From a virus (taxonomy: Duplodnaviria > Caudoviricetes): 53,506 nucleotides of DNA. This document shows positions 19,094-51,384 of this stretch, one piece after another. The notes below the pieces were generated by a model. That model was not told where the DNA came from. It saw only the letters and a program-made list of their open reading frames with translations, and ran no database searches. Position numbers and translations under genes: made by a program. Within the stretch, counting starts at the first letter, position 1. Each line of letters opens with the position of its first letter. The stretch covers positions 1 to 53,506 of the IMG/VR virus record IMGVR_UViG_3300044618_002464. One strand, given 5' to 3'.

Positions 19094-19261
19094 ATGAAAA
19101 AATCAGAAACAATTGATGAATTAAAAATTCAAATACAAGAATTAAGTGAATTATTTGAAAATGAAACATGGTGGGATTCTGCAAATGCAAAATTTCAAAA
19201 AAGAACATTAAAAGCATTATTAGTTTTATTAAAATTTTGTTTAAAAGGAAATCAAAAATGA
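19094..19261 (+). CDS. Hypothetical small protein
   Basis: ATG 19094 after TAAAAGGAAA. Confidence 0.6.
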   Translation: MKKSETIDELKIQIQELSELFENETWWDSANAKFQKRTLKALLVLLKFCLKGNQK

Positions 19262-19602
19262 TTATGAAGCACAGCGAATTATTAGAAAAATTTGAAGTAT
19301 TATTAACTTTATTGGGTTTCAGTGATTATGATTGCAACCTTGATAAAGTTTTAATGAATTATGATCATGCTGTAATATTACCAAATGTTTTATATAAAGC
19401 AAAAATATCAAGAGATGTTATAAATTGGGATACATCAGATGTTACTTTAATTTATTCTACTTCTAGTTTATATGGTCCTAGTTATTATGTTAATTTGGTG
19501 GATCAATTGGTTACAAAAAAAGTCATTACTGATTTAAAAGACATTGAATTAATAAAAAAATTCAAAGTAAGTGTTTACAGTAAACTAAAAAAGAAAATAT
19601 AA
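19258..19602 (+). CDS. Hypothetical protein
   Basis: ATG 19258 after TAAAAGGAAA; ATGA overlap with the upstream gene. Confidence 0.65.
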   Translation: MIMKHSELLEKFEVLLTLLGFSDYDCNLDKVLMNYDHAVILPNVLYKAKISRDVINWDTSDVTLIYSTSSLYGPSYYVNLVDQLVTKKVITDLKDIELIKKFKVSVYSKLKKKI

Positions 19603-20217: not shown

Positions 20218-20652
20218 ATGACACAAAAATTAGATTTAACAAAAGTAATTATTCCGTATATAAGAAAACGAGTGCCAGCATATGACACAACATCAATTTA
20301 TTATTCTTATATTCACAACAATTATACAGAAGCTAATTACATTAATTTTTATATTGGTGCTGAATTGATTAAAGATTTAAACATCACGATTGCAGATCGG
20401 TTTATGTTTGCACATGATGGAAGTAATAAAAACAAATGGCATTTAATCATTACAAAAAATCAAGGCGTTCAAGTTAAATTAAATAAAACAGAAAATGGCT
20501 TAGTTATTGTTACCAACCCATTCATTCATAAAAACACAAAAATGAATAAAATAGAATATGCAGAAATTTCAATTATAAACAACAAAAATCAAAGAGTTTT
20601 ATCTTTTGAAGTAAAAGATTGTGATAATGATTTAAAAAGAATTGAAGCATGA
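20218..20652 (+). CDS. Hypothetical protein
   Basis: 144 aa; RBS motif at 20201. Confidence 0.75.
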   Translation: MTQKLDLTKVIIPYIRKRVPAYDTTSIYYSYIHNNYTEANYINFYIGAELIKDLNITIADRFMFAHDGSNKNKWHLIITKNQGVQVKLNKTENGLVIVTNPFIHKNTKMNKIEYAEISIINNKNQRVLSFEVKDCDNDLKRIEA

Positions 20653-21512
20653 TTATTTCATTAAATTATATTTATCATCAATTGGCAAGATCAGATAAAA
20701 GATTTGAATCTAAATGTATTGCACATGAAACATTGATTAATCTTGATCTTTCATATTGTGAATTTGTTGATTGTACTTTTGATGATTTGTACATTGAAAG
20801 TTGCAATTTTCATTTAACAGAATTTATAAATTGTACTTTTAAAAACTCGAGAATTACTGAAAGCTGTGATTTTTTCAATACTGCTTTTAAAAATACGACT
20901 TTCATTGAATGTAATATTAAAGCTAACCTTTCTACAGCTTCATTTAAAGATGTTATTGCAGAAGATTCTGAAATATTGTCAACTGATGCTGATACTTTAG
21001 ATGAAACAGATAACATCATTCATATTGATACTACAATAAAATATACAGGACTTAGTGGCAAAACTGGTGCCGATGATGATGATGATGATGACAGTGAAGA
21101 TGATGAAAAAGAAAATTTAATCATAACTAAAAAAGCAATATTTCTTTTTAATAAATTAACAAGTGGCCAGTATATCAAAAATGCAACTTGTTTGTGGGAA
21201 CTGTCAGAAGATGAGCATCATAATTTAATAAAATGGTGTATAGAGTTTTCTAATTTTTGTATTATAGATTTTGATTCATGTTATGCAGTAGATTCAAGAA
21301 TCAATATATACATCATTGATAATGATCATTTAACAACTGTAGAGGGCCATAGATTACCAATCTATAAAATCAATGACAGATACAGCATATATATTGCTAT
21401 AAATTCAATGAACAAACATTTAACACTGTATAACAAATTGTATCAAGCATACACTGTTTATGATGGCTGGAATGATCATCAATTAAAAGAAATATTTTTA
21501 AAAACATTATAA
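20649..21512 (+). CDS. Pentapeptide-repeat protein with a poly-Asp tract
   Basis: Repeats LDLSY CEFVD CTFDD...CNFHL TEFIN CTFKN...ANLST ASFKD; DDDDDDDSEDDE. Confidence 0.8.
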   Translation: MIISLNYIYHQLARSDKRFESKCIAHETLINLDLSYCEFVDCTFDDLYIESCNFHLTEFINCTFKNSRITESCDFFNTAFKNTTFIECNIKANLSTASFKDVIAEDSEILSTDADTLDETDNIIHIDTTIKYTGLSGKTGADDDDDDDSEDDEKENLIITKKAIFLFNKLTSGQYIKNATCLWELSEDEHHNLIKWCIEFSNFCIIDFDSCYAVDSRINIYIIDNDHLTTVEGHRLPIYKINDRYSIYIAINSMNKHLTLYNKLYQAYTVYDGWNDHQLKEIFLKTL

Positions 21513-45394: not shown

Positions 45395-46714
45395 TTATAT
45401 TTCTTGAAAAAAGCAAGTTAAATCAATAGAATCATAATCATATAAATCATATATATATTGAATGTACTTTGCATTTGATGAATAATCTGGCACTAAAATG
45501 TTTTCATGTATGTTATTCTGCACCCCCTGAACATCAACATCAACTAGTATTTGTGCTAATGTCCCTTTGTTTGATAACAATGTTGTGTTTAAAGCATCAT
45601 TGATGCTATCTAAAGTGATATAATTTTGTCCCATGATTCTTGTCCCACCATAAGGCTGTGAACAAATAGCTCTTCGGATTTCTCTTTTTATTAAATCTGT
45701 TACTGATAAAGTTATTTGTATAGGTTGATTATTTTCACTTTGTGATTCTATTGTAATTGGTGTTGTTGGTGAATATCCTTTTAACAAAGTAACTTCTACA
45801 ATTAATTTCATAAAAGCATTAGTGATCAAATATGTTTTTGAAGTATTGGTTATAATAGTTAAACCTGCCAATCTAATGCTATTAATATAATTGGTAACAA
45901 TATCAATTAAATCTTGAGGTGCTTCCCTGGAGTATGAAATAAAATCAGTATCAGGTAATAAACCTTGATTTAAAACATATTCAGTCATTTGCTGACCTAC
46001 TAATATAAAATTACCTAATTTACCTACTCCATTTACTTTTACAAAATTTTGTATCTGAATACTGTCTGTTACTTTAGCAAAACCAATAGGCACTAACTTA
46101 TTTGCTTGAATATCAAAAACAGCATAATCAGTAATTCTTGCACCAGATAAAGGTGATTGTTCAGCTTGTAATATTCTGTAAATTGCTTGTTGATCTGTTT
46201 CTTCTGTTTGACCTATGTTGCAAGATAAAACGGCCACAATATCACCGCTATTATTAGTTAACAAAGCATTTATTGGTTCAAATATAGTATTACCAGGGTT
46301 GACTGCATATAAAGTAAATACATCATTATCTGTTATTGCGGTTACATCAATCTCTTGCAAATTCTGATAGGTGTTTCCACTTTTTTGATCAGTAAATATT
46401 GTATTTACAGGAATAATTGCAGTAGATATTATTGTTGAAAATTCTACAACAATAAAACCATAACTTAATCCCATTCTAGCTGGCAATCCATTTTTATATA
46501 ACCATTGATCAACTCTATCACCTTGAGCATTTTGTGGAAAAAGAAAACTCAATACTTGATTTAAATTTGCATATAAGTTTAAAAAAATAGAAGCAATTCC
46601 TTGACTTATTATATCCCATGCTAAGTTTGGTTTATATGGGTTTATTTTTGAATTAATTGCTTGTAAAGCATCTTTAAATTGTTGTTTTAAATTTTCTAAT
46701 GTTTCAATTATCAT
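45395..46714 (-). CDS. Baseplate J-like protein (Mu gp47)
   Basis: FPQNAQGDRVD..., IPVNTIF, GQTEETDQQ...RI...SGARITDY. Confidence 0.88.
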   Translation of the reverse strand: MIIETLENLKQQFKDALQAINSKINPYKPNLAWDIISQGIASIFLNLYANLNQVLSFLFPQNAQGDRVDQWLYKNGLPARMGLSYGFIVVEFSTIISTAIIPVNTIFTDQKSGNTYQNLQEIDVTAITDNDVFTLYAVNPGNTIFEPINALLTNNSGDIVAVLSCNIGQTEETDQQAIYRILQAEQSPLSGARITDYAVFDIQANKLVPIGFAKVTDSIQIQNFVKVNGVGKLGNFILVGQQMTEYVLNQGLLPDTDFISYSREAPQDLIDIVTNYINSIRLAGLTIITNTSKTYLITNAFMKLIVEVTLLKGYSPTTPITIESQSENNQPIQITLSVTDLIKREIRRAICSQPYGGTRIMGQNYITLDSINDALNTTLLSNKGTLAQILVDVDVQGVQNNIHENILVPDYSSNAKYIQYIYDLYDYDSIDLTCFFQEI

Positions 46715-48489: not shown

Positions 48490-48894
48490 CTATTCTTTAA
48501 AACCTTGTACATATTTTTCTGTGATTTTAGGTAAATGTCTTTTTCCTAGTAAATATTTTGTTAAATTACCAGGTCCCATGTTATAGGCCATTAATCCTAA
48601 AGTGTAATTACCAAATTGATGGGTCAAGTCTTTTAAATAATGAGCACTAACATTTAAATTTTCTTGATAATATTTGGGATTTCCTGCTAAATTATAACTT
48701 ATTTTACTGTATTTATCCCAAACATCTTTACTTACTTGCCCTACTCCTTGAGTATATCCAGTAGGATCGCTTCCTATATTAATATTACCCTTGCTTTCAT
48801 TATACACTAACCTATTAAATGCTTTTGGATTTATATGAAATTTATAGGCTGTACTTAAAACCGCCCCTTGTATGTCTACAGGAGCGGAAAGAAG
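48490..48894 (-). CDS. Lytic transglycosylase (SLT) domain, predicted to be expressed as a -1 frameshift fusion to the TMP
   Basis: AYKFHINP...LVYNES, GVGQV, LMAYNMGPG and TEKYV SLT motifs; frame open from the slippery site, with no ATG upstream of the catalytic Glu. Confidence 0.8.
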   Translation of the reverse strand, partial: LLSAPVDIQGAVLSTAYKFHINPKAFNRLVYNESKGNINIGSDPTGYTQGVGQVSKDVWDKYSKISYNLAGNPKYYQENLNVSAHYLKDLTHQFGNYTLGLMAYNMGPGNLTKYLLGKRHLPKITEKYVQGFKE

Positions 48895-48917
48895 TTTTTT
48901 GTTGGGTCTGTCCCTTT
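48861..48917 (-). promoter_or_regulatory. -1 programmed ribosomal frameshift signal
   Basis: AAAGGGA, 10 nt, A_AAA_AAC (48900-894), 6 nt, hairpin CCGCTCCTGTA-GACA-TACAAGGGGCGG. Confidence 0.8.
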
Positions 48918-50699
48918 AGGGTGTACCATAGGAGACATACCGGTATAACCACCACTACTGCCACCAGAAGATGAACTATTACCACCATTGTCAATAACAG
49001 TAACATGCTGTGCTGATACTTGTAGACTAGATATATCTTTTAAACCTTGTTGTAATGAAGTGATAATATCAACACCTAATTTCTGTGCAACATTTTCACT
49101 TGCATCTAAACCATCATTACTCGGATTTTTAAATACTTGAGCTCTTTCTCTATTTAATGCAATAATTTTTTCTGGTGAAAATCCAAATTTACCGGCAACA
49201 GCTAAATCTAAGCCATAACTATTAATATCTTTAGTATCACCAGACATAAAACTTTGTGCATGTTGTACTAATTCATTTATCTTGTCTGCTTTACCACTTA
49301 ATTTACCAGTTCTTAATGTTGTATTCCAGTCTATACCCATTGCTTGTTTTAATGCTTCATTTCTAGCAAATTGAGAAATATCTTCATTTGCATATTCAGA
49401 TACAGCGCTAGAAATATGAGGATTATATTGTGAGTTATAAGCTAACTCTCTTGATAAATCTTTACTGTATCCTATTGTCATTAAATTTAATGCTGTTTGA
49501 TTTGTTTGTTCAGAATAACCATAACCAAATTTATTACGAGCATCTTTAATATCTTCACTGAAAGATTCCAATGATTTACCAGTAACAATCTGATACTGTG
49601 TTGCTTGAGTAGTTAACTTTGCAAAAGAATCCACAGCAAAACCTGCTTTGGTAAAATTCTGTGCTACTGCTGACAGATTTTCATTTAATGGATTGCTTCC
49701 CATATAAGGAACGATATTATTTAATATTGAATTGTAGTTTAAGTCTGAACCATACTTTTTCTCAAACTGTGCTGACAATGGTGCATTTATAGCTGAACCA
49801 CCAGTTATTTTACTTGATGCTAATTCATAATTGCTTTTATTTAAACCAAAGCGACTAAATCCTGTTGACCATTCAGAAACAGAAGCTGATGCCATTCTTT
49901 CTGATATAGCAGATTTTAAAGCTGTTTCAACTTCTATTTTTTGATTTTTTTCAGCGGCCGACAATGTACCATAACCACCACCCAACAATGCACCGCCATA
50001 TTTACCATATCTTGAACCATACTTTGCCCCTTCATATGTACCAACTGCTAAACCTGGTAAATTCCCAACTGTAAACCCTGCAATACCACCAGTTAACCCA
50101 CCCAAAATACCACCGCCAATACCTCCAACAGTTCCCCATATTCCCTGACTTTTTGCAAGGTTATTAGATATTTGTTGTTCTTTGTTGACAGAATATAAAT
50201 TAGCAATGTATCCATTAAAAGATTGATTTGCATTACCTTTTATTGCTTCTTGAATAAAACCACCTTGACTAGTGGCTCTACCCATGATTGCATTTGCTTC
50301 ATTATTCATGTATCTAGTAGCGGTAACAGTCAAGCCAGTTAATAATGTTGCACCAATTAATTTACCTGTACTTGCACCAATTGATGAAAATATCTGATTA
50401 AATGATTGCTGTTGTTTATTAAGCCAATCCTGAAATACTTGTACCTGTTCATCATTTGGAAAGTCGTTAGGATTACGATCAAATTCAGGATTTCTCGAGT
50501 ATTTTGGCTCTTTATTTGATTCACTGTTTACTGCATTACCTGCTTTATTGTCAAAATTTAAATTCAATTTGTCTATTGATGAATTTAATTTTGATAAAAT
50601 ATCTGCTAAATATTGAAAACTTGCATTATTATTACCTGACATATCAGATATATTATCATCACCACCAACAAATTGAATTTGAATCTTATGATCAGACAT
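48876..50699 (-). CDS. Tape measure protein
   Basis: 607 aa after tube and chaperone genes; A/G/S-rich with a glycine-zipper hydrophobic region. Confidence 0.8.
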   Translation of the reverse strand: MSDHKIQIQFVGGDDNISDMSGNNNASFQYLADILSKLNSSIDKLNLNFDNKAGNAVNSESNKEPKYSRNPEFDRNPNDFPNDEQVQVFQDWLNKQQQSFNQIFSSIGASTGKLIGATLLTGLTVTATRYMNNEANAIMGRATSQGGFIQEAIKGNANQSFNGYIANLYSVNKEQQISNNLAKSQGIWGTVGGIGGGILGGLTGGIAGFTVGNLPGLAVGTYEGAKYGSRYGKYGGALLGGGYGTLSAAEKNQKIEVETALKSAISERMASASVSEWSTGFSRFGLNKSNYELASSKITGGSAINAPLSAQFEKKYGSDLNYNSILNNIVPYMGSNPLNENLSAVAQNFTKAGFAVDSFAKLTTQATQYQIVTGKSLESFSEDIKDARNKFGYGYSEQTNQTALNLMTIGYSKDLSRELAYNSQYNPHISSAVSEYANEDISQFARNEALKQAMGIDWNTTLRTGKLSGKADKINELVQHAQSFMSGDTKDINSYGLDLAVAGKFGFSPEKIIALNRERAQVFKNPSNDGLDASENVAQKLGVDIITSLQQGLKDISSLQVSAQHVTVIDNGGNSSSSGGSSGGYTGMSPMVHPKGTDPTKNFFPLL

Positions 50700-50701
50700 T
50701 T

Positions 50702-50869
50702 TTATTTTGTCCTTTCTTGCTCGATTTTATTTACAATTAACTTTAACCACATTAAGTATTCAAAACGGATTGCATCTTCTCTTCCAGGCTTCTGCAAGAG
50801 ATCGCTAATGAACGAGCTATTTGTCGTAAGCTCAATAAGTCTAAGGTATTCAAAAGTTCTGGCTTTTTT
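50702..50869 (-). CDS. Tail chaperone -1 frameshift extension (gpGT-like)
   Basis: GTA AAA AAA AAG slippery run; -1 frame open for 53 codons and stopping 2 nt before the TMP ATG. Confidence 0.7.
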   Translation of the reverse strand, partial: KKARTFEYLRLIELTTNSSFISDLLQKPGREDAIRFEYLMWLKLIVNKIEQERTK

Positions 50870-51384
50870 TTTACTGCTTTTTCAATATTGATTCTTTCAT
50901 CTTCTGACATCTGTGTTGGTCTAATAGTGCATTCTTTTACCCAGTTAGCATAGATTTCAAATAAATCATTTAACATACCTAATGGCAACCAACCTAAATC
51001 TTCTAATGTTAAAGTTTCTTTGCTTTTTTCTTTTACTGGTGATTTAGTGTTTGCTTTATATAATGTAACAAGCATTTTTCTTAATGAAATTCTAATGTCA
51101 TCTCTTATATTGTTTTCATCACAGAATTTTATAACTTCTGATTCTATATCAAAATTTTCTTGTGCTGATAATATTCTTAATTCAAGCTCTATTCCGTTTA
51201 TTTCAATATTGGTATATGTACCAACACCATATTGAACAAAGTCCAATATCTTATTTAATTTCATTGCTTGAAAAGTTTTATCAAGATCAGTATTTTCAAT
51301 TGGCTTTTCTTTTATATCACTAATTACATTTCTATTATTAGTGGTCATTGCTTGTATTCTTTGTAATTTTTCTTGTCTATCCAT
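50752..51384 (-). CDS. Tail assembly chaperone (gpG-like)
   Basis: Between tube and TMP; ELRILSAQE...VKKK pattern. Confidence 0.75.
   Translation of the reverse strand: MDRQEKLQRIQAMTTNNRNVISDIKEKPIENTDLDKTFQAMKLNKILDFVQYGVGTYTNIEINGIELELRILSAQENFDIESEVIKFCDENNIRDDIRISLRKMLVTLYKANTKSPVKEKSKETLTLEDLGWLPLGMLNDLFEIYANWVKECTIRPTQMSEDERINIEKAVKKKPELLNTLDLLSLRQIARSLAISCRSLEEKMQSVLNT

Follow-up and report, generated by a model that had tools for sequence, protein, structure and literature searches.

A probable programmed -1 frameshift at the 3' end of a phage tape-measure-position gene would append a lytic transglycosylase domain

The 3' End of the Tape-Measure-Position Gene and the Frame That Overlaps It

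We analyzed IMGVR_UViG_3300044618_002464, a complete 53,506-bp virus record of IMG/VR with terminal repeats that stems from lake-water metagenomes (G+C content 24-31%). The whole of this stretch is referred to as the window. Our subject is the expression of a lytic transglycosylase (SLT) domain that is encoded behind, and partly within, the 3' end of the gene at the tape measure protein (TMP) position of the tail module. On the minus strand, this module runs from a sheath-like gene (weak PF17482 match, E 0.0025, below the cut-off) through genes for proteins of 146, 210 and 607 amino acids (aa) to the SLT frame, followed by genes for 455- and 133-aa proteins and a baseplate wedge gene (45395-46714; phrog_6 match, 7e-12). 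The 607-aa gene is provisionally called TMP from its position between a chaperone-like gene with a slippery run and the baseplate genes, from a Gly-rich block within its product, from weak matches of TMP PHROGs to 2 of 34 relatives (2.9e-4 and 2.6e-3), and from language-model features that place the protein near PF10145 TMP clusters (score 0.90), a similarity that we treat as a lead only. The 607-aa protein itself gave no Pfam, PHROG or PDB profile match. The features at its 3' end, given with positions in the window, include a Shine-Dalgarno (SD)-like element that contains the core of the ribosome-binding site (RBS) of the phage and an open reading frame (ORF) reported by gene callers; distances are in nucleotides (nt).

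48876..50699, minus strand: tape-measure-position gene, 607 aa, 0 frame (ORF; TMP name by gene order, no family match)
48916..48918, minus strand: TAA that closes the -1 frame, in the AAAGGGA region (from the sequence)
48911..48917, minus strand: SD-like AAAGGGA, 10 nt 5' of the heptamer (AAAGG is the phage RBS core)
48894..48900, minus strand: slippery heptamer A_AAA_AAC (Lys601-Asn602 of the TMP frame), at which tandem -1 slippage is proposed
48888..48893, minus strand: spacer UUCUUU, 6 nt, between heptamer and hairpin (from the sequence)
48861..48887, minus strand: 11-bp hairpin, GACA loop and one bulge, proposed downstream stimulator (from folding)
48490..48900, minus strand: -1-frame coding region from the shift site to TAG 48490-48492, with a complete predicted SLT/GH23 domain (Pfam and fold)
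48796..48798, minus strand: predicted catalytic Glu of the SLT domain (Glu35 of the model)
48490..48807, minus strand: GTG-started 105-aa ORF reported by gene callers (P0102), which would lose both N-terminal helices

The TMP ORF ends ACA AAA AAC TTC TTT CCG CTC CTG TAG and overlaps the SLT frame by 37 nt, with the heptamer inside the overlap. An earlier note on this DNA had described the TMP 3' end with the heptamer A_AAA_AAC, AAAGGGA at a distance of 10 nt, and a GC-rich hairpin that starts after 6 nt and encloses the TMP stop codon, and all of these elements are present. The hairpin (17 G or C among 27 nt, 63%) encloses the TAG at 48876-48878; its minimum free energy of -16.2 kcal/mol (z = -4.35) was equalled by 0 of 200 shuffles, and the 48 nt 3' of the heptamer rank for stability in the top 0.35% of 1,136 segments from the surrounding 8 kb. 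The AAAGG core of the SD-like element recurs upstream of 25 of 53 ORFs of at least 120 aa, compared with 1.8% of random 17-mers, while AGGAG is found in 1 of the 53; the RBS motif of the phage is AAAGGAAA-like and points to a host 16S rRNA tail that is used at its CCUUU end. No start codon lies within RBS distance downstream of the AAAGGGA at 48911-48917. Both the hairpin and the AAAGG core are unusual. In-frame heptamers occupy 190 of its 12,011 codon positions (1.6%), and about 0.19 would be expected by chance in the 12-codon overlap, which makes the heptamer weak evidence. Sixteen ORFs of at least 100 aa carry a heptamer among the final 20 codons, and behind some of them stands a long -1 ORF that is simply the next gene. 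As far as sequence can tell, the signal in the window is weak evidence when taken alone, and it is the comparison with relatives that decides.

Two other candidates were considered at this locus and rejected. Reassignment of the stop codon, with TAG read as sense, would add only 6 codons to the TMP frame before a TAA is reached, and a sub-threshold Rfam match to AdoCbl-II on the opposite strand (17.9 bits; gathering threshold 36.5) was taken as chance. No tRNA or tmRNA genes were found in the window phage, which leaves no phage tRNA to influence slippage.

The -1 Frame Encodes a Predicted Lytic Transglycosylase

The -1 frame reads RDRPNKKLLSAPVDIQGAVLSTAYKFHINPKAFNRLVYNES... and is predicted to encode an SLT/GH23 lytic transglycosylase with a goose-lysozyme-like fold. 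Pfam SLT (PF01464) matches residues 22-127 of the stop-to-stop frame (E 6.8e-9; 35.7 bits, cut-off 21.3) and covers profile positions 6-110 of 117, beginning 15 residues before the GTG at 48807. Because this match covers residues 22-127, the start of the domain lies upstream of that GTG. Among solved structures, the best profile match was EtgA (4e-5). The AlphaFold2 model of the SLT frame (predicted local distance difference test 83, predicted template modelling score 0.80) has two helices predicted with high confidence, at residues 10-20 and 25-35, the second of which ends at Glu35. Along its full length the model matches the Slt fold; its best fold matches were Slt, MltD and MltE, with template modelling scores of 0.64-0.68 over 141-147 columns (Foldseek E 0.017, probability 1.00), and the residues N-E-S are invariant in all eight aligned SLT sequences.

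The earlier note had stated that the -1 frame is closed upstream by TAA, lacks an ATG, and has its annotated GTG start three codons before the catalytic Glu. This was confirmed in the sequence, in which GTG 48807 is the sole canonical start codon ahead of the Glu. In the model, initiation at this GTG (Val32) would delete helix 10-20 and most of helix 25-35, and the predicted SLT fold is complete only if it is read from the shift site.

The -1 Arrangement and Its Slip Sites in Nine Lineages

We compared nine DNA lineages, namely the window, the L002 group (5 near-identical contigs), L005, L006, L007, L020, L012, L013 and L021, between which SLT identity amounts to 39-74%, except for L007 and L020 (89%). 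Alignment-based queries found these relatives in viral contigs, while the window TMP or SLT found none when used as single-protein queries. A search of GenBank phages with the window TMP (tblastn) gave no match. Scanning viral contigs with an alignment of 34 TMP sequences brought back the same 9 contigs without adding a lineage, and an SLT-alignment scan of genome contigs yielded nothing, that is, neither a prophage copy nor a clue to the host. One 6.9-kb relative (L003 / L014 / L024) is labelled 'GVMAG' (giant-virus bin) though it has a phage-type tail module, probably a binning misassignment.

At the protein level, the TMP homologues (about 35% identity) are all 553-598 aa long, and none of them carries an SLT domain. 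A profile search of 1.84 billion representatives revealed no in-frame TMP-SLT fusion among 40 proteins, which extend at most about 55 aa past the TMP profile. When longer proteins were searched with the SLT profile, only distant SLT proteins were found (best E 3.3e-5), in contrast to values of e-34 to e-62 for true relatives. In the DNA, the SLT domain lies in the -1 frame of the TMP in 9/9 lineages and overlaps the TMP end by 16-64 nt. The shift sites are as follows.

Window: A_AAA_AAC, stop 15 nt downstream
L002 group: G_GGA_AAG, TAA adjacent
L005: C_CCA_AAA, TAA adjacent
L006: C_CCA_AAC, TAA adjacent
L012: A_AAA_AAC, TAG adjacent
L013: A_AAA_AAG, TAA adjacent
L007, L020 and L021: GCA_AAG, then one codon and the stop

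A canonical X_XXY_YYZ heptamer thus stands at the homologous place in 6/9 lineages, in five of them directly against the TMP stop, and A_AAN is found in 9/9. In the alignment of the -1-frame proteins, the window heptamer matches A_AAA_AAC of L012 and A_AAA_AAG of L013 codon for codon, and the proteins align from the slip codon onward (K-K-L-L-S-A-P-V-D in the window, K-K-L-A-S-G-T-V-E in L012). The window alone among the heptamer lineages is without an adjacent stop, so that its short form is five residues longer. Throughout the material, in-frame heptamers occupy 323 of 21,480 codon positions (1.5%); among 64 ORFs of at least 150 aa, six have a heptamer that abuts the stop, and five of these six are TMP genes. 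By our own arithmetic, the probability of finding this in 5 of 8 lineages at p = 0.015 is about 4e-8.

The amino acids encoded at the slip site vary (GK, PK, PN, KN and KK), and the slippery pattern is kept through rare synonymous codons. In L002 it is completed by GCG, which makes up 8.8% of the Ala codons, and in L005 by TCC (2.6% of the Ser codons); AAC accounts for 13-21% of the Asn codons in the window (21%), L006 and L012, and AAG for 16-26% of the Lys codons in L002, L013, L007, L020 and L021. Judged from this codon usage, selection is acting on the nucleotides of the slip site. In most of about 40 lineages the TMP family has a conserved S-P-x-K(K/N) end, and the TMPs of the window, P0008 and P0066 are among the few that run on for 5-20 residues and in which the adjacent stop is missing. 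The protein ends of about 30 further TMP lineages are mostly S-P-x-K, K-K, P-N or G-K; as far as can be told from protein sequence, about half of them fit shift-prone sites and the rest fit A_AAR only. Between L006 and L007/L020 the SLT domains are 73-74% identical, yet both the slip sites and the downstream stems differ, so that turnover of the signal outpaces divergence of the protein.

A stem-loop begins 4-8 nt 3' of the slip site in each of the nine lineages, and the 48 nt downstream of the slip site are within the most stable 0.1-11% of segments from the respective locus (the segments of L012 and L013 being offset by one base). Local hairpins are found in the window, L012, L021 and L007/L020. 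L002, L005 and L006 share a long-range stem in which 5 of 11 pairs have changed on both sides (shuffled mean 2.4; 8 of 500 shuffles reach this value), and which pairs in 68% of cells compared with 30-41% when it is slid. SD-like elements were seen in L012 (GGAGGA, 11 nt upstream of the heptamer), in L007/L020 (AAGGT) and perhaps in L013; L002, L005 and L006 have none. Most relatives thus have the heptamer directly against the stop, stems other than that of the window, and often no SD-like element. Conservation of the signal at homologous TMP-SLT loci, on which the earlier note had set store, hence holds for the arrangement, the A_AAN and the stem-loop throughout, and for the heptamer in two thirds of the lineages.

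In L012 (2590-2685), a 6-bp stem (AGCGGC/GCCGCU) 3' of A_AAA_AAC-TAG bears GGUGG in its loop, which could pair with CCACC 20 nt further on, a possible H-type pseudoknot.

Start Codons and Selection Upstream of the Catalytic Glu

No start codon for the SLT domain is conserved across the lineages. Where the SLT frame has a canonical start at all, its position counted from the catalytic Glu is -29, -25, -18, -15, -12 or -3. In L006 neither ATG, GTG nor TTG precedes the Glu; the GTG at -3 is the sole start of this kind in the window and L020, and an ATG at -29 is present in L005 and L013 only. Gene callers placed the starts of 49 SLT relatives at 16 different positions. Thirteen of the called proteins start at least 29 residues before the Glu (nine exactly at -29), eight between -26 and -23, and 17 between -18 and -3; the other 11 comprise ten whose start falls behind the Glu and one variant. 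In total, 28 of the 49 called starts fall inside the domain, including the ten behind the catalytic residue.

L007 and L020 are close enough to compare substitutions over the 31-codon stretch between slip site and Glu. In the SLT frame, 11 are synonymous and 2 non-synonymous, compared with 2/12 and 0/14 in the other frames, and by this measure the 31 codons are under purifying selection in the SLT frame. The upstream GTGs of these two lineages alternate with GTT, that is, with a synonymous Val codon, and across the lineages Ser codons in the SLT frame switch between TCN and AGY.

Frameshifting and the Alternatives to It

We estimate at roughly 75% the probability that a conserved programmed -1 frameshift at the TMP 3' end appends a complete SLT domain to some TMP copies. 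The earlier note had proposed that two TMP forms of 607 and about 736 aa result, and the nine-lineage comparison supports this proposal; the length of the predicted long form follows by arithmetic (602 + 134 = 736 aa).

Several observations weigh against frameshifting. The lineages L007, L020 and L021 (3/9) have no canonical heptamer but only A_AAG, and the conserved S-P-x-K end of the TMP may partly account for the Lys codon. In E. coli, A_AAA_AAC is much less shift-prone than A_AAA_AAG (PMC5009743). The hairpin ranks of L007, L020 and L012 are only 8-11%, the covariation in the long-range stem rests on three distinct sequences, and SD-like elements are clear in only 4-5 of the nine lineages. 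The nine -1 arrangements are not nine independent events, and the -1 relation could descend from an ancestral TAATG stop-start overlap. A separate SLT protein appears possible in about 4 of 10 lineages, and free SLT may also be made in some; an ATA, found at the -29 start position in both L002 and L006 and as the Ile10 codon of the window, could allow weak restart. Finally, the name TMP is given to the 607-aa gene by position only, with no match to a family profile.

The main alternative is translational coupling, in which the SLT domain would be a separate small protein made by restart after the TMP stop, either at an ATG in TAATG or at the near-cognate ATA (Ile10 of the window, 48871-48873), and the -1 offset would be a relic of the overlap. 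We consider this unlikely, while taking it seriously. The ATG does lie in TAATG in L005 and L013 (as in roughly a quarter of the called relatives), ATA occupies the same codon in L002 and L006, 9/49 called SLT proteins start exactly at -29 and 21/49 at -23 or further upstream, and stop-start overlaps are common among the late genes of the phage. Across the lineages, however, the codon at the restart position encodes M, M, I, I, A, K or L; there is no near-cognate codon at the overlap in L007, L020 or the window, and L006 is without a canonical start before the Glu. Coupling also leaves the heptamers, and the rare codons that build them, unexplained, and a stable stem at or beside the supposed restart codon should hinder initiation. 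Nor would AAAGGGA serve as its RBS in the window, since it lies about 37 nt from the ATA, which is too far. Initiation as annotated, giving the 105-aa protein from GTG 48807 with the open stretch upstream of it due to chance, is very improbable. It has in its favor that gene callers produce this ORF and that AGG stands 3 nt upstream of the GTG, but it would remove helix 10-20 together with most of the helix that carries the catalytic Glu, and the Pfam match starts 15 residues earlier. The 31 upstream codons are moreover conserved under purifying selection, and equivalent GTGs are not kept between L007 and L020 in spite of their 89% identity.

Homopolymer runs such as the A6 run of the heptamer are error-prone, and in-frame TMP-SLT genes are common elsewhere, e.g., P1 Sit (PMC9024508), those of enterococcal phages (PMC10194240) and P0023, which combines PF06791 with PF01464. 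Nonetheless, an assembly or sequencing indel in this run, or a recent inactivating deletion in an in-frame TMP-SLT gene, is scarcely credible. Contigs of runs X1 and X2 (which may be the source) and a 151-nt contig of run X4 from an independent study (48788-48938) are identical to the window and gap-free, whereas X5 lies outside the site; the contigs of three runs thus reproduce A6, a result obtained on assembled Logan contigs. All 8 other lineages, moreover, keep the -1 split with different, non-homopolymer slip sequences, and no in-frame relative was present among the 40 representatives. The hairpin might also be a weak intrinsic terminator or an RNA-stability element unrelated to recoding, which would be compatible with either route of SLT expression. 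We give this a slim chance. The stem is GC-rich and UUUU follows it, but these four U are all that stand behind the stem, a terminator scan found 0 here, the stems of the relatives have no trailing U runs, and essential baseplate genes follow downstream in the same orientation. Transcriptional slippage was rejected as well, since the sites GGGAAAG (L002), CCCAAAA (L005) and CCCAAAC (L006) are not long homopolymers.

Proposed Mechanism

Under programmed frameshifting, most ribosomes would read five more codons past the heptamer and stop at the TAG, yielding the 607-aa form. On A_AAA_AAC, a minority would slip back by a single base while tRNA-Lys occupies the P site and tRNA-Asn the A site. The 11-bp hairpin located 6 nt downstream would hold ribosomes at the slip site, probably with help from base pairing between the 16S rRNA tail and the AAAGGGA that lies 10 nt upstream. 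Slipped ribosomes would then read 134 further codons in the -1 frame and produce a TMP-SLT fusion of 736 aa. We infer that slippage occurs, and likewise its frequency; among RNA runs none was listed as containing this stretch, which bears neither way on expression. The fusion would be packed in the tail with the enzyme at its tip-proximal C-terminus and could cut peptidoglycan on entry, and the shift rate would set the number of enzyme-bearing TMP copies.

Comparison With Known Recoding Systems

The tail chaperone frameshift of the lambda G/GT type has reportedly been described by Levin, Hendrix and Casjens in 1993 and by Xu, Hendrix and Duda in 2004 (as cited in PMC3025963, PMC5009743 and PMC3556154). 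As in that system, a predicted, conserved -1 slip on X_XXY_YYZ close to where a tail gene ends would yield two forms, short and long, at a fixed ratio; signals are weak or variable, and it is the arrangement, rather than the sequence, that is conserved. The heptamers are also of the kind used by chaperones, with G_GGA_AAG in the L002 group and A_AAA_AAC as in phiCbK, since A_AAA_AAC and G_GGA_AAC are named as chaperone slip sites of phiCbK-like phages in PMC3556154. The two systems differ in place and product. The site analyzed here lies at the 3' end of the TMP-position gene, downstream of the chaperone gene and not between tube and TMP genes, and is hence not of the G/GT type; the added part would be an enzyme domain instead of the tube-binding T domain, and G and GT are absent from virions, whereas TMP-SLT would presumably be a virion component. 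The same tail module has a further slippery run in the chaperone-like gene.

50863..50872, minus strand: A9G run (A_AAA_AAG; GTA AAA AAA AAG) near the end of the 210-aa gene 50752-51384, with the -1 frame open to just before the TMP ATG at 50699

Past this run, the 0 frame of the 210-aa gene continues to 50752, which gives two long alternative C-termini. From its sequence and place, the A9G run is likely to be the G/GT-type chaperone frameshift site of the module that also contains the TMP.

The frameshift signals of E. coli dnaX and of the IS911/IS3 family consist of an SD-like element, an A-rich heptamer and a stem-loop. The window has the same components, with the SD-like element at 10 nt and the stem-loop at 6 nt, so that the earlier comparison with dnaX and IS911 stands as far as the spacings in the window are concerned. 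It does not extend to the family, since only the window has the full layout of SD-like element, heptamer, local hairpin and a stop that follows at 15 nt, and the upstream element is not conserved among these phages. The Z base of the window heptamer is C (Asn) and not G as in dnaX, and the shift would lead to a longer product with a new domain, whereas that in dnaX truncates. The GCA_AAG relatives resemble single-tRNA A_AAG slips, which are described along with the dnaX slip in PMC5009743.

The in-frame TMP-SLT proteins of P1 (Sit, PMC9024508) and of enterococcal phages (TMP-LT proteins, PMC10194240), as well as the TMP of TM4 with its peptidoglycan hydrolase motif (PMC1796659), provide the closest functional parallels. 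Both they and the predicted fusion would place GH23/SLT or a related activity on the protein that fills the tail and leaves it first, presumably for local digestion of the wall at entry. In the in-frame proteins, every copy bears the domain, which is often internal; here it is C-terminal, in the -1 frame, and would be present in a minority of copies. SLT domains on tape measures are indeed common and lie in frame there (PMC9024508, PMC10194240), as had been assumed.

A literature search yielded chaperone frameshifts and in-frame TMP lysins only, and no case in which a tape-measure gene shifts into the frame of a lysin (supplementary prediction lists, e.g., of PRFect, being outside the search); in the PRFect paper, tape-measure genes are mentioned only as possibly mislabelled chaperones (PMC10885494). 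The assertion that a shift at the TMP/SLT junction is not the usual phage arrangement agrees with the texts searched, in which no such case was found.

Structural proteins offer another parallel. Programmed ribosomal frameshifting is said to extend the C-termini of capsid or tail-tube proteins in T7 (10A/10B), the Listeria phages PSA and A118, SPP1 (gp17.1*) and the Lactobacillus phage A2. There, too, recoding at a 3' end decorates a fraction of structural subunits, but the additions are decoration or adhesion domains on a multi-copy shell or tube, whereas a catalytic domain on a few-copy TMP is predicted here.

Implications for Tail-Module Recoding and Annotation

To our knowledge, the chaperone gene that precedes the TMP is essentially the one place in phage tail modules for which programmed frameshifting is known. 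If our reading is true, a slip at the TMP end that adds an enzyme would constitute a second class of tail-module recoding, and a simple way of dosing a catalytic domain that is bulky, on a carrier that has to be accommodated inside the tail tube. The two slips, at the chaperone site (50863-50872) and at the TMP end, may then bracket the TMP gene. The family also provides nine natural variants of a bacterial frameshift signal with which possible trade-offs among slip site, adjacent stop, SD-like element and stem-loop could be studied. For annotation, split tape measures are easily dismissed as errors, and comparison with relatives separates real recoding from error; at present, 10 of the 49 called SLT genes lack the catalytic residue.

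A wider proposal, quite possible but put forward tentatively, is that a whole family of freshwater phages with contractile tails makes its wall-cutting enzyme only by recoding, including the cases in which an ATG overlaps the stop. Of the few TMP copies in each tail, a fixed minority would be enzyme-tipped, the signal would turn over freely while the arrangement stays constant, and, together with the chaperone site, two slips on Lys codons would bracket the TMP gene and set two stoichiometries.

Heptamers also occur at gene ends elsewhere in the window. Two early-region ORFs on the plus strand, 19168-19602 and 20649-21512, end with the in-frame heptamers A_AAA_AAG and T_TTA_AAA, respectively, each 6 nt before the stop; the -1 ORFs of 103 and 108 codons behind them are probably overlapping next genes.

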